From Candidatus Abzuiibacterium crystallinum (GTDB lineage: Bacteria > Omnitrophota > Omnitrophia > Omnitrophales > Abzuiibacteriaceae): a stretch of DNA of 64,000 nucleotides. The notes under the pieces are model-generated. The model saw only the letters and a program-made list of their open reading frames with translations, was not told where the DNA came from and did not search any database. The first letter of the stretch is position 1. Each line of letters opens with the position of its first letter. The position numbers were made by a program, and so were the translations under genes. The stretch lies in the NCBI GenBank assembly GCA_002787155.1, contig PCVY01000065.1:1286-65285 (forward strand), written 5' to 3'. This document shows positions 1-24,763 of the stretch, in pieces.

Positions 1-230
1 CAGCGCGGAATGGCGAAAAGCGATAAATACCACGGAAGCGCTGCTGTACCGCTTAAACTGGCCACGGCAAAAACAATGTCTTCGGGAAGACGGGAGCTGT
101 CCGAGAACATATGAAAAATACAAAAGATAAAGGTAATAGACGCTAAAACAAAAACAATAAAGAATACCCAATCCCAAAAGGTCCAGTCCCGTTTACTAAA
201 AATGTTGGGGGAAAATTTGGGTGCCGTCAT
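1..230 (-). CDS. Partial CDS for a hypothetical integral membrane protein. The N-terminus lies in the window; the body runs off the 5' edge.
   Basis: On the minus strand an ATG (plus-strand CAT at 228-230) opens a frame that stays open to position 1. The translation MTAPKFSPNIFSKRDWTFWDWVFFIVFVLASITFIFCIFHMF... is strongly hydrophobic. The six-frame track omits it because it has no stop inside the window. Confidence 0.3.
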   Translation of the reverse strand, partial: MTAPKFSPNIFSKRDWTFWDWVFFIVFVLASITFIFCIFHMFSDSSRLPEDIVFAVASLSGTAALPWYLSLFAIPR

Positions 231-432
231 TTGCCGGCCGCGAAGTCCTACAAATTGAGATGCCAAACGGCTCGTGTGCGGTTTGAAAATTTGATACGCT
301 GCACGTTCAGAAGTACCTGCTGCGTAAGCTTGAGTGGCGTGGAGAAAAATTGGCAGATTAAAAAGTGTGAAAAGGAAAACAAGAAAATATTTTTTCTTCA
401 AGTGTGAGGAGTTTTTCAATGAAACACCATCA

Positions 433-777
433 CTAAACGGGCATTCGGCTGATCAAATTTTGAGCACGCGGAGTTGAAGAGCGCGGTACCGCAATCCCAA
501 ATCCTTTTAAAGGATTGCCGTGCACATCTTTACGGCCTTGTTCATAAAGGCAGCATTCGATCTCTTCTTCCTGAAGCCTGGCCAAAACCCCTTGGGCATC
601 TTCAAAGGCATCCGTGTCATACACTTGAACCCACGGTCCCTTTTCAGCTTTAGAGCGAAATCGCCCGCGTGAAGGCTGTGCCTCATCCGCTGGTTTTTCT
701 ATCTTGCGGCGCGTTAAGATACTAACCGCCGCATAAACCGCGATAAAAATAGCTAAATAAATAAATATCATTCTCAT
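433..777 (-). CDS. Small membrane-anchored hypothetical protein, possibly DUF2007-like
   Basis: 114 aa with an N-terminal transmembrane helix (IFIYLAIFIAVYAAVSIL) and a short soluble tail. A possible TTGCCG-17-TACAAT promoter sits upstream on the minus strand. Confidence 0.4.
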   Translation of the reverse strand: MRMIFIYLAIFIAVYAAVSILTRRKIEKPADEAQPSRGRFRSKAEKGPWVQVYDTDAFEDAQGVLARLQEEEIECCLYEQGRKDVHGNPLKGFGIAVPRSSTPRAQNLISRMPV

Positions 778-872
778 GATTTAACCCGTTCGGTCCGGCT
801 TATTGTATGCCATTATACCAATTGTAGCTTATCAGTACTTAATCGGCAAATCTCCTCCTTTTCAAGAGGGGT

Positions 873-1952
873 TTAACCGCCCAATTTTTGAAGTGCCCAT
901 TCGGCATGTTCGCGCACCAATTTAGAGCCATGCTTGAGCGCTTTTTTTAAAACAGGAATAGCGGATCGATCATTGGAATTACCTAAAACCACACAAGCAT
1001 TTCTCAGTAACTGTTTGTGGCGCGCGCGCAAAATAGCCGTTCCTTTAAATTGCTTTTCATAAACGCCTTGACTGGCTAAATCAAAAATGTTTTCCAAATT
1101 TAAATGGGGACCAAATCCTTCGGCAGCCGTCAGTTCGCGGCAATCGGTTTCCTGCTGTCCATTCGTGAAAGGACAAATATTTAAACAGTCATCGCAGCCA
1201 AAAACCCAATGTCCTATTTTGTCCCGAAATTCGCTTGGAATGGCTTCTTTATTTTCGATTGTCAAATACGCAATACATTTGCGCGCATCAAGCGCTTTAT
1301 CTTCTTCGATTGCCTCTGTGGGGCATACATCAATACATAACTGACAAGTACCGCAGCTGCCTTCAAAAGCCATGTCCGGCTCAAGATCTAAATCGGTTAC
1401 CAGTTCTGATAAAAAGAGCCATGGCCCGTATTGAAGTGAGAGCAATTGGGTTTGCTTGCCAATGAATCCAAGGCCGGCTTTTTCTGCCAAATCACGTTCG
1501 GCAAGGGGTTTGGTGTCAATAGCGCTGTGAAAGCGTACGGGTTTTCCGGCATGTGCCGTTAGCTGCTTTTTCAGTATCTCTAATTTTTCTTTGATGACCC
1601 AATGATAATCTTTTCCCCAAGCATAACGCGCGACTCGACCCTTGAGTGCCGCGGAACCGAGATCTGTGGGTGAGGTCAGACCTCCGTTGTTAACAGAACC
1701 TGTGCTTGAATTAGAATAATAATTAAGCCCTAACACAATAACTGATTTAGCTTCAGGAAATTCCGACCAAAATTGCTCGGAACGGCGGGCAAAGTCTTCT
1801 AAGTAACTCATGTTACCGTGTTTGCCCTGTGCCGCCCATTCATCGATCCGTGCGCCGGCTTGAGCAGCCGTGGCAGGCAGTGTAATACCGCACACATGAA
1901 ATCCGACTTCTAAAGCGAGACGTTTGATTGTTTCGGCATTTAAGCGGTCCAC
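873..1952 (-). CDS. queG: tRNA epoxyqueuosine reductase
   Basis: Two 4Fe-4S motifs (CGTCQLCIDVCPT and GCDDCLNICPF) and C-terminal HEAT-like repeats (LRNACVVLGNSNDRSAIPVLKKALKHGSKLVREHAEWAL) are typical of QueG. Confidence 0.88.
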   Translation of the reverse strand: MDRLNAETIKRLALEVGFHVCGITLPATAAQAGARIDEWAAQGKHGNMSYLEDFARRSEQFWSEFPEAKSVIVLGLNYYSNSSTGSVNNGGLTSPTDLGSAALKGRVARYAWGKDYHWVIKEKLEILKKQLTAHAGKPVRFHSAIDTKPLAERDLAEKAGLGFIGKQTQLLSLQYGPWLFLSELVTDLDLEPDMAFEGSCGTCQLCIDVCPTEAIEEDKALDARKCIAYLTIENKEAIPSEFRDKIGHWVFGCDDCLNICPFTNGQQETDCRELTAAEGFGPHLNLENIFDLASQGVYEKQFKGTAILRARHKQLLRNACVVLGNSNDRSAIPVLKKALKHGSKLVREHAEWALQKLGG

Positions 1953-1953
1953 T

Positions 1954-2601
1954 TTATTTCTCCCGCGAAGGGCACCATGTCCGAACAGCGCATTCGCTGC
2001 AACGGGGCCGGCGCGCCCGGCAAGTCAACCGGCCGTGCCAAATGATAAGGTGTGAAAATTGAGTCCATTGGCTTTGGGGAATTATTTGATTAAGATCGTA
2101 TTCAATTTTAACGGGATCCGTGTGGCACGTTAAACCCAATCGGCAGGTCACGCGTTTCACGTGTGTATCAACCGCAATTCCCGGAACGCCAAAGGCATTC
2201 CCTAAAATCACATTTGCCGTTTTGCGGCCAATGCCGGGGAGCGACACCAACTCTTCCATTTTTTGAGGCACGCGGCCGTTGAAACGCTCTAAAAGCGCCC
2301 GGGCACACGCTTGAATGTTTTTGGCTTTGGCTCGGTAAAACCCGGTGGAATAAATGTCACGTTCAAATTGCTTCAAATTTGCTTTGGCATAATGGCTGAC
2401 AGTTTTGTATTTTCTGAACAAAGCGGGCGTCACCTGATTAACGCGCTCATCTGTACATTGAGCGGATAAAATGGTTGCCACCGCCAGCTGCCATGGATTG
2501 TTAAAATGAAGGGCTATTTTTCGCGCAGGAATCGCCCGAGAGAGACTTTCGATAATTTGAAGAGCACGCGCTTTTTGAGCCGATAAACTTTTGGTTTTCA
2601 T
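1954..2601 (-). CDS. nth: Endonuclease III (DNA-(apurinic or apyrimidinic site) lyase)
   Basis: HhH-GPD motif (LPGIGRKTANVIL...VDTHVKRV) and a C-terminal 4Fe-4S cluster loop (C-x6-C-x2-C-x5-C). It lies one nucleotide downstream of queG. Confidence 0.9.
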   Translation of the reverse strand: MKTKSLSAQKARALQIIESLSRAIPARKIALHFNNPWQLAVATILSAQCTDERVNQVTPALFRKYKTVSHYAKANLKQFERDIYSTGFYRAKAKNIQACARALLERFNGRVPQKMEELVSLPGIGRKTANVILGNAFGVPGIAVDTHVKRVTCRLGLTCHTDPVKIEYDLNQIIPQSQWTQFSHLIIWHGRLTCRARRPRCSECAVRTWCPSREK

Positions 2602-2813
2602 CTTTAGCGATTCTTTAACTTAGGGTGAATGATGCCGATAAGCATAACAATTGCCATACCGGTTTTGCCTGCGTAAAAGCTGTAGACAAAGCGTAGGTTA
2701 TTTTAATAAGATATCACAAATTGACAATGCATGACTACGGAATCATGCTATTCAATCAAGCGGCCAAAAAAACGGGTGATCGAGCTTTTTTCATGTTAAT
2801 AAAGCGTTTAGGC

Positions 2814-4157
2814 ATGAAACAAATTGTTTTACTGCTTGTTTGCACTACTTTTCTCTTTTCAATACCCGCCTCAGCCGATCCGAATGACGATTTATATACC
2901 CAAAAATTAAGACACCCTGAAGAAACTTCCGCGAATGCCATCCGTAGCCGCGCCCTCACCCGCTGGATTTTCGGATTACCGGGCCTCCCGATTGATTTAT
3001 TAAAAGCAGGCGCTGATCCGACGATGAGCTACCTCGAAAACAAGCGCATCGTTAAAAAAATTGATTGGGCATGGACTGAAATAAAAAAATATGGTTTCAA
3101 ACCTGAAACTCGTTTTGCGCCGGGCGGTTTCCGCTCCGGTTTGGGATTAAAAATCGAAGGGCATCGGTTATTCAAAACAGATCTTTCTTTACCTCATTTG
3201 CAATATAATGTCTTTGGCGGATTTGTGAACAAAGGAAAGAACGCGCATTATTATGATGTCGGAGCCGACTACAAAATATCATTTGCCAATAACCCCAGCC
3301 TTTATCACGCGAGCACCGCTGCCTTTGAGCATAGACCTCGGGAAGATTTTTTTGGTATCGGACCTGATACCAGTTTGGGAGATGAATCCGATTACAATAA
3401 AGACATGCTTCGCCTGGATACCCGGCTCGGTTATCAATGGACGTTTTCCCTCAAGACGGAGGGGTTCTTTCGCTACAGGCACATCCAGATTGGCAATGGC
3501 CACGAAGAGGACAGTTTTAGAATTAAAGAACATTTCACCGAGGATCAGGTGCCGGGCATTCATGGCAGCAATGTGATCGATTTGGGATTTCTTTTTGAGC
3601 ATGATACCCGTGACATGATTGAAGACCCGATGCAGGGCGGTTACGAAAAGTTTGAAATTTCATTCTCTGACGATGCAAGCGGTGATAATTTTCATTACAT
3701 GAACATTGAATTCCGTGCGGCCCGCTATTTCCAATTGCTCTCAGACCGCCGGATTTTAGCGCTTCGCTTTTATGCCGGGCGTTCGCAGCCTTTGGGCGGC
3801 GGCCAAGTACCTTTTTTTGATTTGCAGCGTTTGGGCGGCTACGGCAATCAAACCTCCGAAAGCGACATGTTACGGGGCTATGAATACAACCGTTTCTTTG
3901 ACCAAACCGCCATTGCCTTTACACCTGAGTATCGTTACAAAATTTGGAACTATAATAATTTTGATGCGGATTCGGTTATTTTTGCGGACATCGGCGGTGT
4001 GTCAAAAGAAATTCATTCGATGGGGTTTGACAAATTGCGCGTTGATTACGGTGTCGGGCTTCGTGTGAAACATCTTCGCGATACTTTTCTTTCGATTGAA
4101 GCAGCGCACGGGAACGAAGGAATCCAATTTTACATTAGGTCCAAAGCGCCTTTTTAA
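2814..4157 (+). CDS. Omp85-family (Bac_surface_Ag) outer-membrane beta-barrel protein
   Basis: Signal peptide MKQIVLLLVCTTFLFSIPASA at the refined ATG start (2814). Barrel-type motifs RGYEYNRFF...EYRY and DYGVGLRV, and a C-terminal aromatic residue (…KAPF). The track ORF starts at 2721 but has no signal peptide there. Confidence 0.65.
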   Translation: MKQIVLLLVCTTFLFSIPASADPNDDLYTQKLRHPEETSANAIRSRALTRWIFGLPGLPIDLLKAGADPTMSYLENKRIVKKIDWAWTEIKKYGFKPETRFAPGGFRSGLGLKIEGHRLFKTDLSLPHLQYNVFGGFVNKGKNAHYYDVGADYKISFANNPSLYHASTAAFEHRPREDFFGIGPDTSLGDESDYNKDMLRLDTRLGYQWTFSLKTEGFFRYRHIQIGNGHEEDSFRIKEHFTEDQVPGIHGSNVIDLGFLFEHDTRDMIEDPMQGGYEKFEISFSDDASGDNFHYMNIEFRAARYFQLLSDRRILALRFYAGRSQPLGGGQVPFFDLQRLGGYGNQTSESDMLRGYEYNRFFDQTAIAFTPEYRYKIWNYNNFDADSVIFADIGGVSKEIHSMGFDKLRVDYGVGLRVKHLRDTFLSIEAAHGNEGIQFYIRSKAPF

Positions 4158-4170
4158 AGCGGGATAAACC

Positions 4171-5814
4171 ATGAAATTTTCAAGCACATTGTTAGGCATT
4201 TTAATCGGTTGCTCCGTCCTCTTGCCGACGGGACAAGCGGATTCTGCCAGTCTTTCCCGGCTTGATCAAAAAATTTCCGGTCGGGAAACAACTTTTTACC
4301 GTGAGTTTTTTGATCAAGTGGTCTATTACCCGCTTGCCAGACTTTTGCGGTGGGATCAATACATCACACGCCATGTCGGCATGGAAGCATTGGATGTGAA
4401 TGTATTTGACGAAGTACCCGATTCGGCCTTCTTTGAAAACCGACTGGGCAAACAATCAATGTCTATTTCCGAAATCGCAAAAGGGCCCGGCGGCACCCCG
4501 CCCGAAACAAAAGGGCCTTGGGTAGTTACCAAGGGTAAGGATGACGGTTACACCGTCGGGTTTTTTATCAAAGATGCCAAGGGTGATAAATATCTTTTGA
4601 AGTTTGACCCGGCTGATCATCCGGAAATGGCCACATCTGCTGAAATCATTGCCCACAAGTTTTTTTATGCTTTTGGCTACCATGTCCCGAGTTACGCCAT
4701 CGTTTATTTCAAACCCGATATTTTGGAGGCAGGACCAAACGCAACCTACTACAACGGAAACGGTTTTAAAAAGAAACTCGATAACAGCGCTATTCAAGAA
4801 TTGCTGCAAAAAGCACCGGTGACAAAAAACGGCCGTTATCGTGCCGTGGCGAGCCGTATTTTAGACGGTATTCCCAAAGGATACATGAGTTTAGAGGGCA
4901 GACGCTCAAGCGATCCGGACGATTTGATTCCGCACGAAGACCGCCGCGAGATTCGCGCGCTCGAAGTGATCGGGGCCTGGACAAATCAATATGATCTGCG
5001 TTCCGGCAACACGCTTGATATGTTAATCGATGAGAATGGGAAAGCTTACTTGAAACATTATATCATTGATTTTGGGTCCTCTTTCGGCAGCGCCGGCTAC
5101 CGGGCCAAGCACCCTTCCGCTGCTCATGAAACCGTGATCGACTTCGGGGCCATTGCGCGCGCCTTTGTTGAATTGAAAGTAGAAGATAAAGTATGGGAAG
5201 ACCGCTGGGATCAAAACGGAAGAACCATTGCTTATCAATCGTTGGGTTATTTCGATAATATCCATTTTAATCCTGCCGCCTGGCGCTCGCAGTTGGATCA
5301 AGAAGCCTTTCTCAGACTAACCGAAGCTGACGGGTATTGGGCTTCTAAAATCATTGCACGATTCAGCGATGAGATGATCCGCGCTGTTGTGAAAACGGGC
5401 GAAATCACCAACCAAGAAGCAGAATCATTTTTAATTGATACGCTGATCGAACGCCGGGATATGATTGTCCGTTACTGGTTCTCAAAAGCAGTCCCTCTTG
5501 AGTCCATCCAAGTAAAGCCGGTGAATACCACAACTTATTCGCTGAATTTTGAAGACCTGGCGGTGGCTCACGGTATAGACTCACCCATGAGCGTCAAATA
5601 CAGATGGCGCACTAAACGCGGGTCATGGCAGGAATACCAGGCCTCTCCAGCTTCTCTTCAGCTAGATACCGACCGCCTGAAAGAAACAGTTTTCATAGAA
5701 CGGTGGTCATCGGCGTCTCAGAAATGGTCATCACTCCCCCTTCGCCTCAAATTAAGCCGCTCAGCCTCTCAAGAACCGTTTCACTTAAGCGGCATTAATC
5801 GCGGGCACGATTAA
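4171..5814 (+). CDS. Sec-exported (probable lipoprotein) protein with PI3/PI4-kinase-like catalytic motifs
   Basis: N-terminus MKFSSTLLGILIGCSV with a lipobox-like LIGC. Residues 144-160 read K-FDPADHPEMATSAEII (compare PI3K FKNGDDLRQDMLTLQII). Residues 275-305 read DLRSGNTLDMLIDENGKAYLKHYIIDFGSSFG (compare DRHxxNIMV...HIDFGHFLG). The gene starts 13 nt after the Omp85 gene. Confidence 0.45.
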   Translation: MKFSSTLLGILIGCSVLLPTGQADSASLSRLDQKISGRETTFYREFFDQVVYYPLARLLRWDQYITRHVGMEALDVNVFDEVPDSAFFENRLGKQSMSISEIAKGPGGTPPETKGPWVVTKGKDDGYTVGFFIKDAKGDKYLLKFDPADHPEMATSAEIIAHKFFYAFGYHVPSYAIVYFKPDILEAGPNATYYNGNGFKKKLDNSAIQELLQKAPVTKNGRYRAVASRILDGIPKGYMSLEGRRSSDPDDLIPHEDRREIRALEVIGAWTNQYDLRSGNTLDMLIDENGKAYLKHYIIDFGSSFGSAGYRAKHPSAAHETVIDFGAIARAFVELKVEDKVWEDRWDQNGRTIAYQSLGYFDNIHFNPAAWRSQLDQEAFLRLTEADGYWASKIIARFSDEMIRAVVKTGEITNQEAESFLIDTLIERRDMIVRYWFSKAVPLESIQVKPVNTTTYSLNFEDLAVAHGIDSPMSVKYRWRTKRGSWQEYQASPASLQLDTDRLKETVFIERWSSASQKWSSLPLRLKLSRSASQEPFHLSGINRGHD

Positions 5815-5821
5815 AACGCTC

Positions 5822-8266
5822 ATGTTTGCAGACTTCATTACAAAACTGATACAACCCATTGTTAAAATCCGCCGCAGCGAATGGCTGAAAGCGGGCATGA
5901 TGTTTATTTATGCCTTTACCATTTTTGCCACTCTCTACGTTTTTAAACCGGTCCGTTCTTCCCTTTATCTAGACGCCCGCGGCGCAGAAAACTTGTGGTT
6001 AGCTTACTTTTTTGAAGGTGTCGTTCTTTTTGTCATCACCTACCTTTATGTCAAACTAGCAGACAGATTTAAAAACAAGAATCACTTCTTTACCTTCACG
6101 ACTCTTTTTTTAATTTTCAATATCTTAATTTTCTACTTCTGCTTTCAAATGAACGTGAAAGAAAGCTGGCTGGTGCTCTTCTTTTACGGCTGGGTGGCCA
6201 CGTATTCGGTGACCGTTGCCACGCAATTTTGGACCATGGCTAATGATATTTTTAACATGGACGAAGCCAAACGGTTATTCGGATTTATCATCAGCGGCGG
6301 CAGTTTGGGCGGTGTGGTGGGCGGTGGTTTAACCAAATTGTTTGCCGAGCGGTTTGGAACGGAAAATTTGCTTCTCATGCCGGTCCTTTTTCTGACAATT
6401 TCGATTATTGTGACTGAAATTGTCTGGCGAAGCGAACGGACAAAGGCAGGCCCGCTTAAGGAAGTTAAGAAATCGGGTAAGCATGAAAGCCTCACTCGTG
6501 TTTTGCGGCTTTTATTTAAATCCAGGTACTTGCTCTTAATTGCCGGCATTGTGTTGTTTGCAAAAGCCGTCTCAACCATTGTGGATAATCAATTCAGCGG
6601 GGTCGTTGAACTGGCCATCCGTGAAAAAGATGTCCGCACTGCTTTCTTCGGCGGTTTCTTTTCGGCCCTCAACATGGTTTCTTTTATTTTGCAGCTTTAT
6701 GTCACCAGCAAAGTCCTGCGTTATTTAGGAATTAGTATCGCCCTTTTGATGCTTCCCGGCGGACTATTGATCGGTGCTTCTTTGACGATCTTATTCCCCA
6801 TCCTTCCCTTTGCCATGGCAGCCCGTATGTACGACGGCGGACTCAACTATTCGATTAATTTATTAAGCAAAGAAATTCTTTACCTGCCGGTCGCAAGTGA
6901 AACCCGTTACCGCGTAAAACCAGTGATTGACATGTTGGTTTTTCGTCTCGCCAAAGTATTTGCAGCCGCTTTGATTTTCATAGCCCTGAAGTTTGTCGGA
7001 TTGCGCGTTGATCAGCTGGGCATTGTTGTCCTGGTGATTCTGCCGTTTTGGTTGTGGACAGCTTGGCGGGTGAAACACGAGTATGTTCAATCAATTCGCC
7101 AGCTTTTAACTAATGAAAAACGCGTCAAACGTTTTAAAGAAACTTCCCAGAAGCGCGTGACGGACGTTTTGATGAATCTTTTTGAAGAAAAATCCTGCCA
7201 AGAATTAAGGGATTTATTTTATGACATTCCCTCGCATATGAGAAAAATGTCGGCGGCCGCTTGTCTGGCTTTTTATGGCGGCGGCAGAGACGTGGGTAAG
7301 GTAGGTAAATTAGTTCAAGAAATGGTGCGTTATGAAGCGCTGGAGTATCAAAAAAACAGGCCCTTGTTAAATCCGCGAACGGAGAGTACCGGTCATTACC
7401 AATGGGTGGATGAGTACCTGGTAAAATATCTCAAACTCGAACACCCCAGCGCTAAAAGCAAACTCAGTGAAAAAGAAAATGAAATTCTTGAAAGAATTTC
7501 GGGCATGCTGCAAGACACGAAATGCGATGGGTTGAGTAAACGCAAAGCCATCTCCATTTTAAGAACACTGGGAACGCAAAATGCTTTCGATTTGCTTCTG
7601 GGGGCCTTGCCGGTGACCCGTGATAATTCTATTCGTTTTGACATGATCAAGGGCATGAATCATATTCACACAAAATTATCCAATTATTCTATCCCGCAAA
7701 ATGCCGTTGAAGCCGAGGTCCGTTATGAAATTGAAAATCATAAAGCCATTTTAACTGTGATTCACTTCTATAAATCGCAGGAGAAAAAAACTTCTTCCGT
7801 TGATGAGGATTTTCTTTTAGCGACCCTCAAGATTATCCGGGAAGAAAGTCTTGAACGCATCTTTCGGTTATTGGGATTGATCTATCCAACCGAAGCGATT
7901 CAGACCATCTTCGAGCGTTTAACGGATGAAGAGGCTAGTGAAGACCTTCATGGCAAATCCATCGCCATCGAACTGTTAGGGCATATCGTCAAACCGGAAC
8001 TGTACCACCGCCTGCATCTCTTAGTCGATCATGACCGGTGGCATAAACACCGTCAAACAAACCCCAAAGAAGTCATTAAACATTTCTTGATGGGGGAAGA
8101 CTGCTGGTTTTCCGTGTGTGCTGCTTTTGTGATTGCAGAACTGAGAATGACAGAGCTATACTCGCTTTTTGAACATTTGAGCGGCCGAGAAGCGCCCATT
8201 GTCAAAGAAGCCGTTGCGATTGCTAAATCAAAAGCGGAATCTTTCGATACAGGTACAAACAAATAA
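5822..8266 (+). CDS. TLC/NTT-family (ATP:ADP antiporter-like) transporter fused to a C-terminal HEAT/armadillo-repeat domain
   Basis: The N-terminal 430 aa are polytopic. The segment RRSEWLKAGMMFIYAFTIFATLYVFKPVRSSLYLDARGAENLWL..YVKLADRF aligns with the conserved start of nucleotide transporters (PF03219), including the GAE motif. The C-terminal ~380 aa are alpha-helical repeats (…AAACLAFYGGGRDVG…LRTLGTQNAFDLLLGAL…). Confidence 0.7.
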   Translation: MFADFITKLIQPIVKIRRSEWLKAGMMFIYAFTIFATLYVFKPVRSSLYLDARGAENLWLAYFFEGVVLFVITYLYVKLADRFKNKNHFFTFTTLFLIFNILIFYFCFQMNVKESWLVLFFYGWVATYSVTVATQFWTMANDIFNMDEAKRLFGFIISGGSLGGVVGGGLTKLFAERFGTENLLLMPVLFLTISIIVTEIVWRSERTKAGPLKEVKKSGKHESLTRVLRLLFKSRYLLLIAGIVLFAKAVSTIVDNQFSGVVELAIREKDVRTAFFGGFFSALNMVSFILQLYVTSKVLRYLGISIALLMLPGGLLIGASLTILFPILPFAMAARMYDGGLNYSINLLSKEILYLPVASETRYRVKPVIDMLVFRLAKVFAAALIFIALKFVGLRVDQLGIVVLVILPFWLWTAWRVKHEYVQSIRQLLTNEKRVKRFKETSQKRVTDVLMNLFEEKSCQELRDLFYDIPSHMRKMSAAACLAFYGGGRDVGKVGKLVQEMVRYEALEYQKNRPLLNPRTESTGHYQWVDEYLVKYLKLEHPSAKSKLSEKENEILERISGMLQDTKCDGLSKRKAISILRTLGTQNAFDLLLGALPVTRDNSIRFDMIKGMNHIHTKLSNYSIPQNAVEAEVRYEIENHKAILTVIHFYKSQEKKTSSVDEDFLLATLKIIREESLERIFRLLGLIYPTEAIQTIFERLTDEEASEDLHGKSIAIELLGHIVKPELYHRLHLLVDHDRWHKHRQTNPKEVIKHFLMGEDCWFSVCAAFVIAELRMTELYSLFEHLSGREAPIVKEAVAIAKSKAESFDTGTNK

Positions 8267-8273
8267 GTTTCCG

Positions 8274-9011
8274 ATGGTATTCATTCATTTCTCGAAACAA
8301 CTGAAGCAGGACATCTGGTTATGGGTCAGTACCGGCTTACTGGGTGTTTTTCTGCTGGGAATGAGCGGCTGCCAGTCGGTACCGCTCATGGGGGGTGTGG
8401 GTGCGCAGGGCGAGTTGATTTATTTAACGCCGATCCGTGACATCCCCAAACACATCCAAGAATGCGCCGAATTACAAGACCTCTCAAATGAAGAATCAAA
8501 AATTAACTATCTGATCTATCGCGTGCAAAAATCCGCTCTTCCCTTTACCCGAAACGGTTCCACTTATAGCAGTGAAAACGCGGCACAATTTCTCAGGTGG
8601 AAACTAAACCGGCCGAATTGGCGGCCGTTGGTCCGCAGCGCCCGTGAATTCGTTATCATTATTACCCGTGGTTCATCTAAATCCGGCTTACCTTATGAAG
8701 TAAAATTACCGGACAGAACACACCATGAACTTAAAGCCATTATGATCAATGAGCTTGATTTTCTGGAAGAATATTTAAAAACACGGGAAGCAGGATCTGC
8801 GGCTCATTTGCCCGTCAGCTCCAAAAAAACAGAGGAGGAATCCGCTCAGAATTTACAGCCGGTTCCAGAATCAGACATTCACCGCCGGCATAGTGAACCT
8901 CAACCATTCAGACGCCCGTTTGTTGCCTCACCGCGTTTTGACGATGACGACTATGGACAAACCTCATCCGTATCACCCGCCCAGCAAAACCGTCAGCAGC
9001 CCCGCACATGA
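8274..9011 (+). CDS. Hypothetical lipoprotein with a low-complexity acidic/Q-rich C-terminus
   Basis: Start refined to the ATG at 8274, just after the stop of the preceding gene. Signal peptide with LLGMSGC lipobox. The C-terminal tail is …RFDDDDYGQTSSVSPAQQNRQQPRT. Confidence 0.5.
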   Translation: MVFIHFSKQLKQDIWLWVSTGLLGVFLLGMSGCQSVPLMGGVGAQGELIYLTPIRDIPKHIQECAELQDLSNEESKINYLIYRVQKSALPFTRNGSTYSSENAAQFLRWKLNRPNWRPLVRSAREFVIIITRGSSKSGLPYEVKLPDRTHHELKAIMINELDFLEEYLKTREAGSAAHLPVSSKKTEEESAQNLQPVPESDIHRRHSEPQPFRRPFVASPRFDDDDYGQTSSVSPAQQNRQQPRT

Positions 9012-9781
9012 ATTTCACCGTTATTTGTCTCAATACTTGGGGACAAAACGAACCTTTTGAAAAACGAATGCGTCTCATCACTGCCGAAATCAGAAAATAC
9101 AAACCGCAAGTGGTTTGCCTGCAGGAAGTCTTTGAACCCGTCTTAACGCAAAAGCTCATCAAAGAAATCGGCTTCGGGCATGCGTTTGCCAATCTGGCCG
9201 CAGGGCTTTTGATTTTGTCGCATGACAGGATGGAAGATAAAAAGGAAGTCAAATATCAACATCAATCGACGCTCGAAAATAATGACCGCCGTTTTATCTT
9301 AACGGAGATTCATGCCAACGGAAAAAAATGCTGGATAGGCAACACGCATTTATCCTGGAAGGCGGCTGATGAGACAGCGCGCACCATGCAAACACGCGAA
9401 CTCGCTGCCACGCTGGACGCATTAAAAGCACCCGTGCTGGTGATGGGCGATTTTAACTGCACGCCGGAAAGCGAAGCAATGGCTGTGTTAAGTAAAAGCG
9501 GTTTTACCAATGTATATGACCGCCTTTACCCGGGGAAAAATGTTTTTACGTGGGACAATCAGCGAAACCCCTATCTTAAAACACATGCCGCCATCCTGCC
9601 CAATCGGCGCATTGACCATCTTTATATGAATCAAGCCTTTCAGGAAGTGTTTAAACCCCAAAGCTGCCGGCTCATTTTCACCACGCCTGATGAAGCGGGC
9701 GATTTCCCGTCCGATCACTTTGGTTGGCTAGCTACCTTCCGCACCTGGGGTCAGGTCCCGGACCTGACCCCAAGTCTTTGA
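9008..9781 (+). CDS. Endonuclease/exonuclease/phosphatase (EEP) family phosphoesterase
   Basis: Motifs CLQEV, GDFNCTPES and SDHFG. The last nine codons are encoded by the REP palindrome. Confidence 0.8.
   Translation: MNFTVICLNTWGQNEPFEKRMRLITAEIRKYKPQVVCLQEVFEPVLTQKLIKEIGFGHAFANLAAGLLILSHDRMEDKKEVKYQHQSTLENNDRRFILTEIHANGKKCWIGNTHLSWKAADETARTMQTRELAATLDALKAPVLVMGDFNCTPESEAMAVLSKSGFTNVYDRLYPGKNVFTWDNQRNPYLKTHAAILPNRRIDHLYMNQAFQEVFKPQSCRLIFTTPDEAGDFPSDHFGWLATFRTWGQVPDLTPSL
9747..9771. repeat. REP palindrome GGGGTCAGGTCC-C-GGACCTGACCCC
   Basis: 25-nt sequence with 12-bp perfectly complementary arms. It lies at the convergent junction of the EEP gene and the RAYT gene. Confidence 0.85.
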
Positions 9782-10374
9782 ACAAATTCTTGGCTACCAA
9801 GAATTCCGTTTCCAACAGCATTTTGCAATGGGTTTATATTGGTTATTAACCCTTTGTGGACAAAAGTCTGATAATCAACCGGCGATTGAAACTGATTCAT
9901 AATTTCCAATGAACCTAGAAAAGAGGGTGGTTCGTCACGCACAAAATAACGCATGCTTGACCAAACATAATCGACAGGATTGTCTACTAATTTGGCTTTG
10001 CATGGGTTTAGGTGAATATAGCGCGATAATTCTAAAAGATAGGTATCTTTATCAATAACAATCGATTTATATCTTCCTTGAAATAAATGACCAACTCGTT
10101 CGTGTCTATAATTAAATCGCATCGTATAAGTCCCAATTAATCTTTTCATAAAAACAGCGAGATTGGCCTGTTTGGTCTGAATGAGTAAATGAAAATGGTT
10201 GGGCATGATACAATAAGCATAAATAACAACTTCATCTTTCTCCGCACACTCAACCAATATGCTCAAAAACATACGATAGTCGTACTCTTCCCTTACAATT
10301 TCTCTCTTTTCGTTACCTCGAGAGAAAACGTGATAATAAGCACCTGGAAATTGTAGACGTAATGATCTTGCCAT
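9751..10374 (-). mobile_element. REP-associated tyrosine transposase (RAYT, IS200/IS605 TnpA-like Y1 HuH enzyme)
   Basis: HuH motif MPNHFHLLIQ and a downstream catalytic Tyr region (…NYRHERVGHLFQGRYKS…). Flanked by two inverted copies of the same REP palindrome. Confidence 0.85.
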
Positions 10375-10466
10375 CAGAAATATGTGTGGGGAAACTTAAA
10401 AAAAACAGCTGTGGGAGATAACTAATATTACTCATCCGTCTATAAAAGTCAATCAAAAAAAATCTT

Positions 10467-10491
10467 GGGGTCAGGTCCGGGACCTGACCCC
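10467..10491. repeat. REP palindrome, inverted copy (GGGGTCAGGTCC-G-GGACCTGACCCC)
   Basis: Exact reverse complement of the 9747 copy. It encodes the last codons of PolX. Confidence 0.85.
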
Positions 10492-12195
10492 ACGGAAAAA
10501 AGATTCGATTTCGGAGGCGGAGCGGGTATTTAAAACGTGTTTTTTATCCAGCCATCCTTTTCGGGCAATGCCGACACCAAAACAAATGTCCCCTAACCCT
10601 TCGGGATCGTGGGCATCCGGATTAATGCTGGTCAAAAGCTTGCGTTCACCGAGGCTTTTGAGCAAACGCCAGTCAAGATCCAAGCGATGCGGATTGGCAT
10701 TGAGTTCAATCACGCAGCGATTCTTTTCGCATTCGTCAAAAATCTCCTCATAATCGAGATCATACCCGGCTCTGCCGAGCAGCAAGCGGCCGGAAATATG
10801 CCCAATCATGGTGGTATAAGGATTCTGAGCAGCGCGGATGAGCCGTTTGGTCATTTGGCCGCGGTTCATGCCGAAACGGCTGTGAACGGAGGCAATGATA
10901 AAATCAAACGTTTTAAGAATTTTGTCGGGGTAATCGAGCGAGCCGTCTTCTAGAATGTCTGATTCGATCCCCTTAAAAATCTTTATCTTCTTAAATTTTT
11001 TCTGCAGCCGATCTATTTCTTGGTGCTGCGATTCAATCCGTTTTGCCGAAAGTCCGTTGGCATAATGAGCCGATTGGGAATGATCGCTGATGCCGATATA
11101 CGCATGCCCCAGATCTTGTGCGGTTTGAACCATCGTCTCAAGACTGGCACTGCCGTCCGAATACGTTGAATGGGCGTGAAAAATGCCTTTGATGTCTTTT
11201 ATCTTGAGAAGAATGGGCATTTTCTCCTTTTTGGCTGCTTCTATTTCACCCATATTTTCACGTAATTCCGGCTCAATGTAAGCCATCCCGAGTTTTTCAT
11301 AAATAGCAGCTTCTGAACGGCAAGGAACTAATTTGCTGCCTTTAAACAATCCGTATTCGTTCATTTTAAGGCCGCGCTGTTTGGCAAGCGTCCTGAGGGC
11401 CACGTTGTGTTCTTTTGATCCCGTAAAGTGCTGGAGCGCATAAGGATATTCAACGGAAGAAACAGTCCTTAAATCAACCGGAAGACCGGATTTCAGAATC
11501 ACACTTGATTTGGTCTCACCTTGCGCCACTATGCGCTCCACGTTCGGAAACGATGCAAACTGCTTGTGAACGGCAGCGTGTTTAGCAGCAGCGGCTAAGA
11601 TGTCAATATCATGCACAATTTCTTTGTGCCGCCGCAAACTTCCGGCGATGGCAATGGCTTTCACTTCTTTGTGCTTTTTTAAAAATGCAACCAATTCAAG
11701 CGCTTCATGGCTTGCCTGTGAGACCAAGAAGAAACCTTTGGTCTTTTGATAATGTTCGATTCCTTGTAAAATTTTTTGCTGCGACTTTTCGCCAAAACCT
11801 TCCAACGCGAGCAATCGGTTTTCTTTGCAGGCATATTGAAGTTCGGCGATGTTTTTAACGTCTAACTTTTCATAAAGCGTTTTAGCACGTTTAGGACCAA
11901 CACCCGGAATATGAAGAATCTCCAAAAAACCTTCCGGAAAGGATTTTCTAAGTTCATCGTGATCTTTGGAATAGCCTTTTTTGTAAAGTTCTTTGATGAG
12001 TTCCGAAATACCCTTACCGACACCGGGAATTTTGGTGAGTGTGTCGCTTTCGGCTAAAACTTCGAGATTTTCGTTAACGGATTCAATCGACCTGGCAGCG
12101 TTTTGGAACGCCCGCACACGGAAAGGATTAGCGCTCTTGAGTTCCAAGAGCACTGCCATTTCTTCTAAGATCTCTATAACTTTGTTGCGGTCCAT
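10471..12195 (-). CDS. polX: DNA polymerase X family protein with C-terminal PHP phosphoesterase domain
   Basis: N-terminal HhH/Pol-beta nucleotidyltransferase region (GVGKGISELIKE…, DIDILAAAA). C-terminal PHP motifs (HAHSTYSDGSASLETMV, ISDHSQ, IELNANPHRLD). Confidence 0.9.
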   Translation of the reverse strand: MDRNKVIEILEEMAVLLELKSANPFRVRAFQNAARSIESVNENLEVLAESDTLTKIPGVGKGISELIKELYKKGYSKDHDELRKSFPEGFLEILHIPGVGPKRAKTLYEKLDVKNIAELQYACKENRLLALEGFGEKSQQKILQGIEHYQKTKGFFLVSQASHEALELVAFLKKHKEVKAIAIAGSLRRHKEIVHDIDILAAAAKHAAVHKQFASFPNVERIVAQGETKSSVILKSGLPVDLRTVSSVEYPYALQHFTGSKEHNVALRTLAKQRGLKMNEYGLFKGSKLVPCRSEAAIYEKLGMAYIEPELRENMGEIEAAKKEKMPILLKIKDIKGIFHAHSTYSDGSASLETMVQTAQDLGHAYIGISDHSQSAHYANGLSAKRIESQHQEIDRLQKKFKKIKIFKGIESDILEDGSLDYPDKILKTFDFIIASVHSRFGMNRGQMTKRLIRAAQNPYTTMIGHISGRLLLGRAGYDLDYEEIFDECEKNRCVIELNANPHRLDLDWRLLKSLGERKLLTSINPDAHDPEGLGDICFGVGIARKGWLDKKHVLNTRSASEIESFFRGVRSRT

Positions 12196-12481
12196 GTGTC
12201 ATCCGGAACTCGTGATCCGCGGCCTGTGACCTGTTATTTGTTAAAGCGTTTTGAGAAGGTTAACAAGCATTCTCATTTCATGGTTCAAAGATTCCAAAAG
12301 AATTTGTTTTTGATCAAATGAAAGATATTCTCTCTTACTGGCAATCACTGCTTGTGTTTCTAATTCGGCACAGATGAACTCCCACCGGGACACGGGGAAC
12401 TGGCCGCTGGTTAAATAACATCCTCTTTACTTGTATTATTATATCACTACAATGTTGGCACAAACTACCAGGGAGTAAAAC

Positions 12482-13510
12482 ATGCAGGCAGTCATTATTC
12501 AAGAGCATGGCGGGCCGGAAAAATTGACCTACACGGAAGTGCCCATGCCTAAAATTGATCCCGACGAAGTGCTCATCAAAGTACATGCATGTGCTTTAAA
12601 CCATTTGGATATTTGGACACGCCAAGGTTTGCCCGGTGTCCAAATCCCCATGCCGCATATTTTGGGATGCGACATCATGGGCGAAATTGCAGCCAAAAGC
12701 GAAGACACGCAAGAATTTCAGATCGGCGAGCGCGTGATTGTTTCTCCCGGGTTGATTTCGGATGAAGATCCGTTGGCCGAAACCAAATGGGAATCACTCT
12801 CTTCCGGTTATCAAATTATTGGTTTTCAAATTGACGGCGGGTATGCGGAATATGTCAAAGTGCCCGTCCGAAACGTGATTCCGGTTTCCAATCGCTTAAA
12901 AGACGACGAGTGGGCGGCGCTGCCTCTTGTTTTTCTGACAGCTTGGCACATGCTGGTAACGCGTGCGGCGGTTCAAAAAGGAGAAACCGTTTTAATTCAC
13001 GCTGCCGGAAGCGGTGTCGGGACTGCCGGTATTCAAGTGGCCAAGCATTTAGGGGCGTGTGTGATTACGACAGCGGGAACCGATGAAAAATTAGAACGGG
13101 CGAAAGAAATCGGGGCCGATTTTACGATTAATTACAAAAAGAAAGATTTCGCCGATGAAGTGCGCAGACTCACAAATCAGGAAGGTGTGGATGTGGTGCT
13201 TGAACACATCGGCCCGGAAACATTTGTGAAGAGTTTAGCTTCTTTAAAGAAGAAAGGCCGCCTTGTGACTTGCGGTGCTACCAGCGGGCCCAATGTTCAA
13301 TTAGACCTTCGATTCATTTTTATGCGCCAGCTGGCCGTCATGGGCTGTTACATGGGCGGTATTGAAGAATTGCGTGAAGTGGTCAAACTGGCTGAATCAG
13401 GGGTTTTTAAACCGGTTGTTGATAAGGTGTTCCCGCTTAAAGAGGCACGGGCTGCTCATGAGCGTATGCAGAAACGTGAAAATTGTGGGAAAATAGTGCT
13501 GAAAATATAG
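12482..13510 (+). CDS. Medium-chain (zinc-binding) alcohol dehydrogenase / quinone oxidoreductase family protein
   Basis: GroES-like N-terminal domain with Cys/His zinc ligands and a Rossmann AAGSGVGTAGIQVAK nucleotide loop. 342 aa. Confidence 0.85.
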   Translation: MQAVIIQEHGGPEKLTYTEVPMPKIDPDEVLIKVHACALNHLDIWTRQGLPGVQIPMPHILGCDIMGEIAAKSEDTQEFQIGERVIVSPGLISDEDPLAETKWESLSSGYQIIGFQIDGGYAEYVKVPVRNVIPVSNRLKDDEWAALPLVFLTAWHMLVTRAAVQKGETVLIHAAGSGVGTAGIQVAKHLGACVITTAGTDEKLERAKEIGADFTINYKKKDFADEVRRLTNQEGVDVVLEHIGPETFVKSLASLKKKGRLVTCGATSGPNVQLDLRFIFMRQLAVMGCYMGGIEELREVVKLAESGVFKPVVDKVFPLKEARAAHERMQKRENCGKIVLKI

Positions 13511-18432: not shown

Positions 18433-19710
18433 TCACAGGCCGCCAGTAGAGATTTCAATAAGCGGTAGAAACATAGAGATAACCAGTGTCCCGACAATCA
18501 CACCCATAAAGAGAATAACCATAGGCTCAATAATGACAGAAAGCCGTTGAATGGTGGCGTTCACGCGCTCTTCAAAGAAATTGGCGATCACTTCTAAGAA
18601 ACGGTCTAATTGGCCGCTTTCTTCCCCCACTGAAATCAGCTGTGTCACGAAAACGGGAAAGGCACCTTCTTTTTCAAGCGCCATGGCAACCCCGCTTCCT
18701 TTTTTAACACTTTCTTTCGCACGCTCCACCCTGTCTTCAATCGGCACTGTTCCGACCAGGGTTGATGCAATTTCCAACGCTTGAATAATCGGTGTACCGG
18801 CACGCACCATGGTGCCAAGCCCTCTCGCAAACCTCACAATGGCCACTTCTGTGATAAAAGTGCTCACCACAGGTATTTGAAGCTTAAATGAATCAATCCA
18901 TCTTTTTGACTCTCTTCTGCGATTGAAATATGCATAAGCCATAATAAAAAAAACAATGACTAATACAATCAATATAAAGTGAGATTGCATAAAACGACTC
19001 GAATCTAGGACTAATTGGGTAACTTCCGGAAGTTTTCTGTTCCGTCCAAAACTCTGAAAAACTTTCTCGAAAGTGGGAATCACCTTAACCATGAAAATAC
19101 TCAATGCTCCAATACAAAAACAGATCAAAATAACCGGATAAACCATGGCAGAAGTCAGTTTGCTTTTAAACCGTTCGCTCGACTCTTGATAGTTCTTAAT
19201 TTCGGTTAAAACCTCGGGCAAGGAACCGCTGGCTTCGCCGGCTTGAATTAAGCCAAACCAAAAAGGCGGGAAAACTTTTGGGTATTGAGCCAGGGCCCGG
19301 CTCAAGCTAAACCCTTGGCTGATTTTCTCAATCGCACCTTGTAATACTTTTTTTAAAAGCCCTTTCTTAATTCCTTTTTCAATAATCCCAAGCGACCTGA
19401 GAATCGGAACACCTGCTTTGAGAAGTGCGATCAATTGAATAAAAAAGGAAAGGAGATCACTTCCTTTCACAGTTTCAAAAAGCGTGATTTCACTGAATTT
19501 GGTTACTTTTTTCTTAGATTGATCAGCGGCGTTTTCCCGCTCTTGCTGCGTGAAGGTTTGTTTTTTACTTCCCGACTCTTGAACGGATAAAACAAAATAA
19601 CCCTCCGTTTGCAGCTGACCAACAAGGTCTTCTACATTCATGGCTTCGCGCACAAACTGCTCGATCTTAGCGCCTTCTTCCCGTTTTTTAACTTTGACGT
19701 TGAATTTCAT
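18433..19710 (-). CDS. pilC: Type IV pilus assembly platform protein PilC (GspF family)
   Basis: Two T2SS-F repeats and a three-TM architecture. 425 aa. Confidence 0.9.
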   Translation of the reverse strand: MKFNVKVKKREEGAKIEQFVREAMNVEDLVGQLQTEGYFVLSVQESGSKKQTFTQQERENAADQSKKKVTKFSEITLFETVKGSDLLSFFIQLIALLKAGVPILRSLGIIEKGIKKGLLKKVLQGAIEKISQGFSLSRALAQYPKVFPPFWFGLIQAGEASGSLPEVLTEIKNYQESSERFKSKLTSAMVYPVILICFCIGALSIFMVKVIPTFEKVFQSFGRNRKLPEVTQLVLDSSRFMQSHFILIVLVIVFFIMAYAYFNRRRESKRWIDSFKLQIPVVSTFITEVAIVRFARGLGTMVRAGTPIIQALEIASTLVGTVPIEDRVERAKESVKKGSGVAMALEKEGAFPVFVTQLISVGEESGQLDRFLEVIANFFEERVNATIQRLSVIIEPMVILFMGVIVGTLVISMFLPLIEISTGGL

Positions 19711-19726
19711 GTTTATCCTTAAAGCA

Positions 19727-19755
19727 GTTACCAGAAACCAGCAACCAGATACCAG
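19727..19755. repeat. Left inverted repeat flanking the four-helix-bundle cassette (GTTACCAGAAACCAGCAACCAGATACCAG)
   Basis: Its reverse-complement partner at 20155-20183 is GTAACCAGAAACCAGCTGCCAGTAACCAG, about 25 of 29 identical. Confidence 0.7.
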
Positions 19756-19761
19756 AAATGA

Positions 19762-20136: not shown

Positions 20137-20154
20137 TCAATAAACCAACTCACT

Positions 20155-20183: not shown

Positions 20184-20203
20184 TTCTTTTTACATGCTAT
20201 ACG

Positions 20204-24762: not shown

Positions 24763-24763
24763 G

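Follow-up and report, generated by a model that had tools for sequence, protein, structure and literature searches.

The canonical nucleotide transporters (NTTs; TC 2.A.12), represented by AtNTT1 (9J3J/L/M), Chlamydia pneumoniae NTT1 (9J3N/O) and Rickettsia Tlc1, share a 12-helix MFS-type fold, and ATP transport by AtNTT1 requires the charged residues K155, E245, E385 and K527 (Trentmann 2000, as relayed in passages of PMC10654386 and PMC4776705). A second group, the monophyletic NTT-HEAT clade described by Major, Embley and Williams (2017, Genome Biol Evol; PMC5381601), is widespread, including in free-living bacteria, and has no known function. For Omnitrophota, the available sections of Seymour et al. 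(2023, Nat Microbiol; PMC10066038) report proteins annotated as 'ATP/ADP translocase (K03301)' in two classes of the phylum only, where they form a monophyletic Omnitrophia/Aquiviventia cluster, and read them as scavengers of host ATP; those sections make no mention of a HEAT fusion, of lost signature residues or of an operon with Omp85 and kinase-like genes.

We analysed a 64,000-nucleotide stretch of DNA (hereafter the window) from Candidatus Abzuiibacterium crystallinum that encodes a fusion of a TLC/NTT-type transporter with a HEAT-like domain (TLC-HEAT). Its homologues very probably constitute the same protein group as the K03301 cluster, judging from what is available of Seymour et al. 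(2023; PMC10066038). The nucleotide scavenging proposed in the preliminary description of this locus had already been published for Omnitrophota translocases.

Identity and architecture of the TLC-HEAT protein

The TLC-HEAT gene is a genuine but divergent member of a group already described. Its ATG is the first start codon past the upstream stop, and the product is identical to COV74_08200, a protein from a MAG of Candidatus Omnitrophica bacterium that is already in public databases. When the protein was compared with Pfam, the TLC profile (PF03219) exceeded its gathering score of 21 at 58.2 bits and MFS_1 scored 48 bits; among the aligned homologues, TLC was above the Pfam threshold in 46 of 46 (best E 3.7e-22). 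A Foldseek search with the transporter model returned the NTT1 structures 9j3n, 9j3l and 9j3m at the top (E 6e-10 to 1e-8; TM-score 0.72–0.75, normalised to the target). NTTs were thus first among all MFS proteins, trailed by SPNS2 and VMAT at E ~1e-5, with the lipid and organophosphate transporters SPNS2, G6PT and PiPT as second-tier matches. The assignment to the TLC/NTT family made in the preliminary description was therefore upheld, the profile being above threshold and solved NTTs outranking generic MFS proteins. TIGR00769, the model of canonical NTP/NDP exchangers, gave 48 bits, far below its cutoff of 387.2, and identity to canonical NTT1 was ~17–19%. The nearest relatives outside Omnitrophota were NTT-HEAT(-cNBD) proteins of 900–1260 aa that combine PF03219 and PF13646 with or without PF00027 (~27–37% identity, E 1e-84 to 1e-45); homologues carry the names 'ATP/ADP translocase' or 'AAA family ATP:ADP antiporter' in IMG.

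Hydropathy and the AlphaFold2 model (mean pLDDT 82.9) placed 12 long helices within aa 18–430, the membrane helices running from 18–52 through 400–430. The N-terminus, the central loop 209–234 and the segment after TM12 are rich in Lys/Arg, which fits the positive-inside rule for the topology given in Table 1. The model of the C-terminal tail contains ~24 shorter helices (aa 443–810) arranged as an alpha-solenoid; HEAT_2 was below threshold in the query itself (17.9 against 27.7 bits, aa 572–613) and was found in 43 of the 46 aligned homologues (best E 1.7e-10). We consider it highly probable that the protein is a 12-helix TLC/NTT-type domain with a HEAT-like C-terminal fusion, and, as far as sequence and model show, the product is predicted to be an exchanger of the inner membrane that has 12 helices, belongs to the NTT-HEAT clade and ends in a cytoplasmic alpha-solenoid tail. 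The fusion reported earlier is therefore real, being encoded by a single ORF, but it is neither new nor lineage-restricted: NTT-HEAT proteins form a clade with a wide bacterial distribution (Major et al. 2017; PMC5381601). Like the NTT-HEAT and NTT-HEAT-cNBD proteins of that study, the protein joins an NTT/TLC domain to C-terminal HEAT repeats (PF13646) and occurs in an organism with its own energy metabolism. In contrast to them, members of the Omnitrophota subclade are shorter (~780–830 aa), have no cNMP-binding domain and are linked to a cassette of Omp85, kinase-like and DUF5329 genes that is absent from the more distant NTT-HEAT loci sampled; this linkage is strict.

The ATP-transport signature of the clade was judged by the four mutagenesis-defined residues of AtNTT1. 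Two have been lost: the position of K155 is G in 38/46 members (F64 in the query) and that of E245 is A in 42/46 (A126 in the query). The equivalent of E385 is retained or conservatively replaced (D255 in the query, 46/46 members) and that of K527 is retained (K378, 46/46). Other lysines common to plant and chlamydial NTT1 are also replaced in the clade (K389N, K393E, K488G and K491N), and 78 of the 93 polar or charged positions common to these two proteins are not kept, K155 and E245 included. The NTT motifs that persist are KEILYLP against KEMAYIP and VKPVIDM against GKAAIDV, together with the basic pair K42/R45 in TM1, kept as in NTTs, and the GAE motif noticed earlier, which indeed aligns with GSGAE of Chlamydia NTT1 and GSSAE of AtNTT1. 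The claim of a highly conserved N-terminal segment held within the clade, where K42 and G54 are invariant, but not beyond it, since the similarity of this segment alone to canonical NTTs was not significant (HMMER -1.9 and 2.7 bits) and the best Pfam stretch begins at aa 112. The protein thus resembles canonical NTTs in its 12-helix fold, shared motifs, K527 and E385 equivalents and best structural match, whereas it differs from them in that its loops are shorter, it carries an additional cytoplasmic domain of 380 aa, the K155 and E245 equivalents are missing and the organism is not obligate intracellular. Because K155 and E245 are lost and further conserved lysines are gone, canonical ATP/ADP exchange cannot be assumed; with two of the four AtNTT1 residues and several lysines replaced, the substrate of the clade may be other than ATP, or less negatively charged.

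A conserved cassette of envelope genes

The transporter gene is part of a strict operon, not recognised in the preliminary description, that comprises an Omp85 barrel, a Sec-exported HipA/CtkA-like protein, TLC-HEAT and an exported DUF5329 protein (Table 1). From Omp85 through the kinase-like, TLC-HEAT and DUF5329 genes to an EEP phosphoesterase gene, the intergenic gaps are 13, 7, 7 and -4 nt.

Table 1. Features of the TLC-HEAT region, with positions in the window
Feature	Position	Strand	Properties
Sigma-70-like promoter match	2683..2712	+	TAGACA-18-TAAGAT, 9/12 matches; upstream of Omp85 gene; weak
Omp85-family outer-membrane barrel	2814..4157	+	Pfam Omp85 66.6 bits
Exported HipA/CtkA-like kinase-fold protein	4171..5814	+	547 aa; C-terminal beta-sandwich; AlphaFold2 pLDDT 90.4
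TLC/NTT-HEAT fusion gene	5822..8266	+	Uninterrupted ORF, 814 aa; ATG 5822 to stop 8266
Transporter domain, aa 1-430	5822..7111	+	12 transmembrane helices, both termini cytoplasmic (predicted)
C-terminal all-alpha HEAT/ARM-like domain, aa 431-814	7112..8263	+	Predicted cytoplasmic
DUF5329 exported protein	8274..9011	+	Probable lipoprotein (LLGMSGC); Pfam DUF5329 62.7 bits
EEP-family phosphoesterase	9008..9781	+	Last operon gene here; Pfam Exo_endo_phos 70.7 bits

In a TLC-seeded sample of 26 metagenome loci (close homologues, at least ~32% identity), Omp85, kinase-like or DUF5329 genes were present in all 26, where the contig allows. The genes are arranged either as Omp85-KIN-TLC-DUF5329 or as TLC-DUF5329-Omp85-KIN, and in both orders the DUF5329 gene lies 3' of the TLC gene. 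These data show that in Omnitrophota the transporter gene and its three closely packed partners are inherited together. The cassette was also seen in some Acidobacteria. In a neighbour-joining tree of TLC domains, built with two canonical outgroups, without support values and with the sequences of Major et al. (2017) left out, 56 of 61 cassette-linked domains formed one clade; the Acidobacterial ones fell outside it, which suggests that the cassette TLC was recruited independently in that phylum. The more distant NTT-HEAT loci sampled are usually tandem gene pairs. HEAT-less TLC variants occur in the same cassette and clade (L033, L034, L038, L041, L048, L055 and L060), which means that the conserved association does not require the tail. 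When kinase-seeded loci with adequate flanks were considered, 21 of 46 had the Omp85/kinase pair and no TLC gene nearby; the kinase module therefore evidently works without the transporter in many species. Beside these TLC-less pairs we found no other conserved transporter, only the housekeeping genes trmD, rnhB and yraN and signalling genes. We judge it probable that TLC-HEAT is functionally linked to the Omp85/kinase module. A scan of the region for promoters and terminators gave no more sites than shuffled expectation, and an Rfam scan of positions 1–13000 gave no riboswitch hinting at a ligand, with one sub-threshold tfoR match at 10456–10547.

The Omp85 gene immediately precedes the kinase-like gene in 76 of the 80 loci chosen as species representatives. 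It likely starts at ATG 2814 (the listed ORF begins at TTG 2721), followed by a signal peptide, with the signal-like N-terminus MKQIVLLLVCTTFLFSIPASA. The kinase-like protein matched no Pfam family, and neither its sequence nor its profile gave anything meaningful against PDB chains. In the fold search, its meaningful matches were kinases only (CtkA, Rio2, Fam20C, VPS34 and HipT), with modest E values of ~2e-3; against CtkA the fold probability was 1.0 and the TM-score 0.5, normalised to CtkA. It keeps the catalytic Lys, Glu, Asp-x4-Asn and Asp-Phe-Gly, and across the family K144, E158, D275 and N280 are invariant and D300 nearly so. Weak HipA_2 or HipA_C profile matches were obtained for 11–12 of 46 members. 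Model and sequence thus give the 547-aa protein, a putative kinase, a bilobal HipA/CtkA-like fold and a complete set of catalytic motifs of that type, including the ATP-binding Lys and the metal-binding Asp. It resembles HipA and H. pylori CtkA in fold, catalytic residues and these weak profile matches, but differs from them in its Sec signal peptide, extra N-terminal helical region, C-terminal beta-sandwich and obligate pairing with an Omp85 gene. An N-terminus of the Sec type was present in 109 of 117 homologues and a lipobox in only 9 of the 117; of the earlier label 'kinase-like lipoprotein', the likeness to kinases and the export are upheld, while the lipobox is rare in the family.

The DUF5329 gene likely starts at ATG 8274 (listed ORF, TTG 8199), and 24 of 50 homologues of its product carry a lipobox; the domain was not mentioned in any paper found in a literature search, and sequence searches for solved relatives yielded none for either the DUF5329 or the Omp85 protein. 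The EEP protein has no signal peptide, and among solved structures TDP2 and nocturnin are closest to it. Its gene was rejected as a core part of the system since it adjoins the cassette only in the window and in the nearest relatives (L001–L004 and L092). The link between neighbouring genes proposed earlier is accordingly very strong and conserved for the kinase-like gene, but for the EEP gene it is limited to those relatives.

The window also carries type IV pilus/T2SS genes. Of the energy-metabolism genes ascribed to the organism, those for an F-ATPase were confirmed (a, b, delta, alpha and gamma), but the 'full complex I' was not: the nuo cluster comprises NuoB, C, D, I, H, J, K, L, M and N, and, since NuoE/F/G are absent between D and H, the locus does not demonstrate a full complex I.

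Possible roles of the transporter

An exported kinase would have to draw its phosphate from a nucleotide, for which the compartment it works in has no known supply. According to reviews, ATP has no known means of reaching the periplasm (PMC7432876), and our literature search on periplasmic kinases and periplasmic ATP returned general reviews only. We propose that the transporter would act as an inner-membrane exchanger that sends out ATP or a related nucleotide and takes back the spent one, and that the exchanged nucleotide would serve the Sec-exported kinase-like protein; the cytoplasmic HEAT domain would then be a regulatory or docking module, like the cNMP-binding domain of longer relatives. 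In the eukaryotic ER, the ATP/ADP exchanger AXER/SLC35B1 supplies lumenal ATP to Fam20C-type kinases of the secretory pathway. By analogy, both exchangers would energise a non-cytosolic compartment that holds a kinase, although AXER/SLC35B1 belongs to an unrelated transporter family and to endomembranes rather than a bacterial periplasm. Since the exported kinase needs a donor and characterised TLC members exchange nucleotides, supplying the kinase would be the most likely role of the transporter. From sequence, we advance only tentatively the view that nucleotide export by TLC-HEAT feeds the kinase, and it is slightly more doubtful still that the protein is a dedicated exporter or exchanger bringing ATP or another NTP to a kinase partnered with the Omp85 barrel and so energising the periplasm. 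Against export, ATP in a periplasm behind a porin-containing outer membrane would leak.

The classical alternative, held in the preliminary description and by Seymour et al. (2023), is that ATP or nucleotides are imported from a host, prey or the environment and that the Omp85 and kinase-like proteins are co-regulated host-interaction factors, the kinase perhaps being surface-displayed or secreted as CtkA is in H. pylori. All characterised members of the TLC family import nucleotides (PMC5381601), and Omnitrophota are ultra-small and predicted to be host-dependent, their translocases having been proposed as symbiosis factors in the available sections of PMC10066038. This role is also in keeping with the type IV pilus/T2SS genes and with CtkA, the solved structure nearest in fold to the neighbouring protein, being a secreted kinase that acts on host cells. 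However, the organism has its own F-ATPase and complex-I-like genes, so energy import is not obviously needed; the clade is widespread in free-living bacteria (PMC5381601) and has lost half of the ATP-transport signature residues. A diderm epibiont, moreover, has no evident route by which host cytoplasmic ATP would reach the inner membrane, and co-regulation alone leaves unexplained a strict adjacency that persists through gene-order rearrangement, and also the apparently independent recruitment in Acidobacteria. We regard this role as unlikely.

A little less improbable is a changed substrate, a non-nucleotide molecule made or used by the kinase-like enzyme (a phosphorylated sugar, lipid head group or envelope precursor), the cassette being a pathway of envelope biogenesis or remodelling across the inner membrane, periplasm and outer membrane. 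The remodelled pocket, with 78 of 93 shared polar or charged positions not retained, the very low TIGR00769 score and the second-tier matches to SPNS2, G6PT and PiPT all point this way, as do partners that are envelope proteins (Omp85 barrel, lipoprotein) and the small-molecule and lipid kinases among HipA/PI3K-like folds. Yet the NTT-specific motifs and the K527 and E385 equivalents are invariant and NTT structures are clearly the best fold match, and the phosphate donor for a kinase outside the cytoplasm would be left unexplained. We give least weight to a sensor or regulator (transceptor) in which ligand binding in the membrane domain is relayed through the cytoplasmic HEAT solenoid, the synteny reflecting signalling of envelope state. 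The large, conserved cytoplasmic protein-interaction domain, the cNMP-binding domain added in relatives and the tandem pairs of distant NTT-HEAT genes, suggestive of oligomeric regulation, are consistent with it; conservation of the transport-cycle motifs of the family and the HEAT-less variants, whose place in the same cassette and clade shows the tail to be dispensable for the association, make it quite improbable.

Implications for Omnitrophota and the NTT-HEAT family

NTT genes are widely taken as genomic markers of energy parasitism, and the host dependence of Omnitrophota has been argued partly from them. Since the gene belongs to the NTT-HEAT branch, has lost half of the signature residues and lies in an envelope operon, its presence should not be taken as evidence for ATP theft. 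The exported kinase-fold family is itself large and unannotated (~3,600 clusters at 50% identity) and is paired with an Omp85 gene. If the logic of the operon is right, it bears on the role of NTT-HEAT proteins in free-living bacteria and on whether and how bacteria supply nucleotides to extracytoplasmic enzymes. Nucleotide supply to the exported kinase, if true, would be the first described bacterial system of regulated ATP supply to an extracytoplasmic kinase, and it would provide a function for the NTT-HEAT proteins that occur so widely, and still unexplained, among free-living bacteria. TLC-HEAT may thus feed nucleotides to the cell envelope rather than steal them from a host.

Architecture and family of the TLC-HEAT protein

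The TLC-HEAT gene is one open reading frame of 814 aa, whose product matched the Pfam family TLC (PF03219) with 58.2 bits against a gathering score of 21, and MFS_1 with 48 bits; a HEAT_2 match at aa 572–613 was below threshold. The AlphaFold2 model (46 homologues as input, mean pLDDT 82.9) placed 12 long helices in aa 18–430 and about 24 shorter ones in a C-terminal tail reaching aa 810, a layout with which the hydropathy plot was consistent, so the fusion of a nucleotide transporter to a HEAT-like domain proposed in the preliminary description is borne out. Since the N-terminus, the central loop 209–234 and the stretch after helix 12 are rich in Lys/Arg, the positive-inside rule and the usual MFS topology would make the tail cytoplasmic. 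A residue-for-residue identical protein is already public (hypothetical protein COV74_08200, Candidatus Omnitrophica MAG).

TLC was matched by all 46 aligned homologues and HEAT_2 by 43 of them. Among solved structures, the model was closest to two ATP/ADP translocators, that of Chlamydia pneumoniae (9j3n, E 6e-10) and that of Arabidopsis (9j3l and 9j3m, TM 0.74–0.75 per target), while the generic MFS proteins SPNS2 and VMAT ranked lower (E ~1e-5); because of this ranking and the 46 TLC matches, a generic MFS identity does not hold. Nevertheless, the protein is far from the canonical NTT family, as the query scored 48 bits with TIGR00769, below the cutoff of 387.2, and its E-value against AtNTT1 was only 3.8e-9. 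According to two papers citing the mutagenesis (PMC10654386, PMC4776705), ATP transport in AtNTT1 needs K155, E245, E385 and K527. We added AtNTT1 and CpNTT1 to the family alignment after rebuilding most of each sequence from HMMER alignments and verifying the four-residue numbering. The position of K155 is Gly in 38/46 members (Phe64 in the query) and that of E245 is Ala in 42/46 (Ala126), while E385 and K527 correspond to the invariant Asp255 and Lys378. The plant and chlamydial NTT1 agree at 93 polar or charged positions, fifteen of which are retained; R133K, K136R, K511R and K513R are conservative swaps, the lysines in K389N, K393E, K488G and K491N are replaced, and the helix 10–11 family motifs KEILYLP and VKPVIDM are kept. 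The canonical ATP signature is thus only half present: a substrate that is anionic, and likely nucleotide-like, is plausible, and canonical ATP4−/ADP3− exchange cannot be assumed.

The fusion had been described before. Major, Embley and Williams (2017; PMC5381601) grouped NTT-HEAT fusions, including those with an added cNBD, in one monophyletic clade, 'very broadly conserved' and without assigned function, with members from cyanobacteria and Chlamydiae, from oomycetes and from many free-living bacteria, so the lineage restriction previously raised as a possibility does not apply. These proteins (900–1260 aa, PF03219 with PF13646, often PF00027) are the nearest relatives of the query outside Omnitrophota. 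Seymour et al. (2023; PMC10066038) found that the proteins labelled 'ATP/ADP translocase (K03301)' of Omnitrophia and of Aquiviventia make up a monophyletic cluster and proposed that they scavenge host ATP, and IMG gives homologues of the query the same label. Both the architecture and the host-nucleotide scavenging reading therefore predate our analysis, as proposals, and the gene is a further member of the known, uncharacterised NTT-HEAT group.

The operon and its surroundings

TLC-HEAT lies in a same-strand run of five genes separated by 13, 7, 7 and −4 nt (see table). The DUF5329 protein is predicted to be exported, and roughly half of its homologues carry a lipobox. The EEP protein lacks a signal peptide, has TDP2 and nocturnin as its nearest solved relatives, and is encoded next to the cassette only in the window and in five other loci (L001–L004, L092), so the EEP gene is peripheral. 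Of the two neighbours on which a locus-level idea had been built, the kinase-like gene is thus retained, being conserved with TLC, but the EEP gene is not.

Features of the window
Feature	Position	Strand	Evidence or remark
QueG (epoxyqueuosine reductase) homologue	873-1952	-	HEAT_2 match at C-terminal end
HhH-GPD base-excision-repair gene	1954-2601		separates QueG homologue from cassette
Omp85-family barrel	2814-4157	+	Pfam
547-aa protein, no Pfam family	4171-5814	+	ORF
TLC-HEAT	5822-8266	+	ORF (ATG to stop) and Pfam
DUF5329	8274-9011	+	Pfam
EEP phosphoesterase	9008-9781	+	Pfam
Y1 transposase, IS200/IS605-type	9751-10374	-	Pfam Y1_Tnp, 57 bits
Predicted strong hairpin terminator, PolX gene 3' end	10456-10547	-	12 bp stem, 8 GC pairs, T-run
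Long ORF, 518 aa	14345-15901	-	no Pfam match at E <= 1e-5
Type IV pilus / type II secretion genes	18433-26931	-	T2SSF, T2SSE ATPase with MshEN domain, secretin, PilM
nuo cluster	39617-49607	+	NuoB, C, D, I, H, J, K, L, M, N
Two prepilin-like genes	49836-50839	+	N-terminal methylation motifs; adjoin nuo cluster
Long ORF, 1228 aa	52180-55866	+	no Pfam match at E <= 1e-5
Long ORF, 324 aa	55869-56843	+	no Pfam match at E <= 1e-5

The transposase gene directly follows the EEP gene on the opposite strand, and the two overlap in the final 30 nt of the EEP gene. In L001 and L003 the QueG homologue lies upstream of the cassette and is oriented divergently. The terminator overlaps an Rfam tfoR match below threshold (22.7 bits against 70), which almost certainly reflects the terminator and nothing more. 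Between NuoD and NuoH of the nuo cluster no NuoE, F or G was present, so the cluster is of the 11-subunit type, lacking the NADH-oxidising module at this locus, and does not show the full complex I originally described.

The conserved cassette and its exported kinase-fold protein

In the first eight loci compared, seven from TLC-HEAT homologues (34–60% identity) and one from a kinase-like homologue, an Omp85 gene and a gene of about 550 codons adjoined TLC-HEAT in two gene orders. We then ran the kinase-like profile against a single genome of each species and annotated the 80 resulting loci, for the most part from Omnitrophota with some from Acidobacteria, with custom HMMs. Omp85 lay immediately upstream of the kinase-like gene in 76/80, and a TLC gene within 4.5 kb of it in 44/80 (25/46 of those with adequate flanks). 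In a TLC-seeded survey of 80 metagenome loci, all 26 at or above ~32% identity to the query carried the cassette wherever the contig reached far enough; more distant NTT-HEAT genes were without it, with the sole exception of L135. Since TLC is followed by DUF5329, and Omp85 by the kinase-like gene, in both orders, the system consists of two two-gene modules inherited jointly. Seven cassettes (L033, L034, L038, L041, L048, L055, L060) have HEAT-less TLCs of ~440 aa, indicating that the HEAT domain is dispensable for the association. When 151 TLC domains were placed in a neighbour-joining tree, without support values, 56/61 cassette-linked domains fell in a single clade and the acidobacterial ones elsewhere, a lead that, if the tree holds, TLC genes joined the Omp85/kinase module more than once. 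A contig may hold two Omp85/kinase pairs (L060/L071, JBMONI010000012.1).

The distant NTT-HEAT genes, at most 33% identical to the query, usually occurred as tandem pairs of full-length TLC-HEAT paralogues (L118, L122, L123, L126, L127, L131–L134, L137–L139, L141–L145; and L148, L155–L160, L162, L167, L168), often near a third, HEAT-less TLC gene on the opposite strand. None of these metagenome loci contained Omp85 or kinase-like genes. The tandem arrangement suggests that the paralogues may form hetero-oligomeric transporters.

The 547-aa protein has a Sec-type signal at its N-terminal end. The only coherent fold matches of its model (pLDDT 90.4) were atypical kinases, namely H. pylori CtkA (probability 1.0, TM 0.5 per target), Rio2, Fam20C, VPS34 and HipT, with modest E-values (~2e-3), and its C-terminal part matched a fibronectin-like sandwich. 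Lys144, Glu158, Asp275 and Asn280 (YDLRSGN) were invariant in 46 kinase-like sequences and Asp300 (IIDFG) nearly so; 11–12 of the 46 gave weak HipA_2 or HipA_C matches. Of 117 homologues available at full length, 109 begin with a hydrophobic, signal-like segment. The signals, fold matches and conserved residues together indicate an exported kinase-fold protein with its catalytic residue set intact. Its earlier naming as a kinase-like lipoprotein is upheld for the kinase, but not in general for the lipoprotein, a lipobox occurring in only 9 of the 117. No Pfam model exists for this large, unannotated family, which comprised 3,622 clusters when grouped at 50% identity (E <= 1e-3).

Possible roles of the TLC-HEAT protein

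The established parts are encoded by genes that show operon organisation and co-inheritance: a predicted exchanger of the TLC type whose solenoid is cytoplasmic, a kinase-fold enzyme and a DUF5329 protein that are both exported, and a barrel of the outer membrane. The TLC-family proteins characterised so far exchange or import nucleotides, and kinases require a nucleotide donor. Because no ATP supply of the periplasm, and no translocase for one, is known (review, PMC7432876), we tentatively propose that TLC-HEAT would exchange nucleotide across the inner membrane, that this nucleotide would serve the exported kinase-fold protein, and that the HEAT tail might be a regulatory or docking part. 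The direction of transport cannot be derived from sequence alone.

Several observations count against supply of the kinase: the NTT signature residues are remodelled, the periplasm is leaky, and in many species the Omp85/kinase pair occurs without TLC, in the same position on the chromosome, behind trmD-rplS-rnhB-yraN. It is rather unlikely that TLC-HEAT has switched to a substrate other than a nucleotide and acts in an envelope pathway, and it is somewhat less probable still that the protein imports host or environmental nucleotides in the classical manner, the kinase then being a host-interaction factor under shared regulation. A mainly sensory TLC-HEAT seems quite improbable.

The main addition of our analysis is a conserved cassette linking TLC-HEAT to an exported kinase-like protein, which gives a hypothesis that is specific, open to testing and potentially important, and the gene calls for caution against its use as a marker of energy parasitism.
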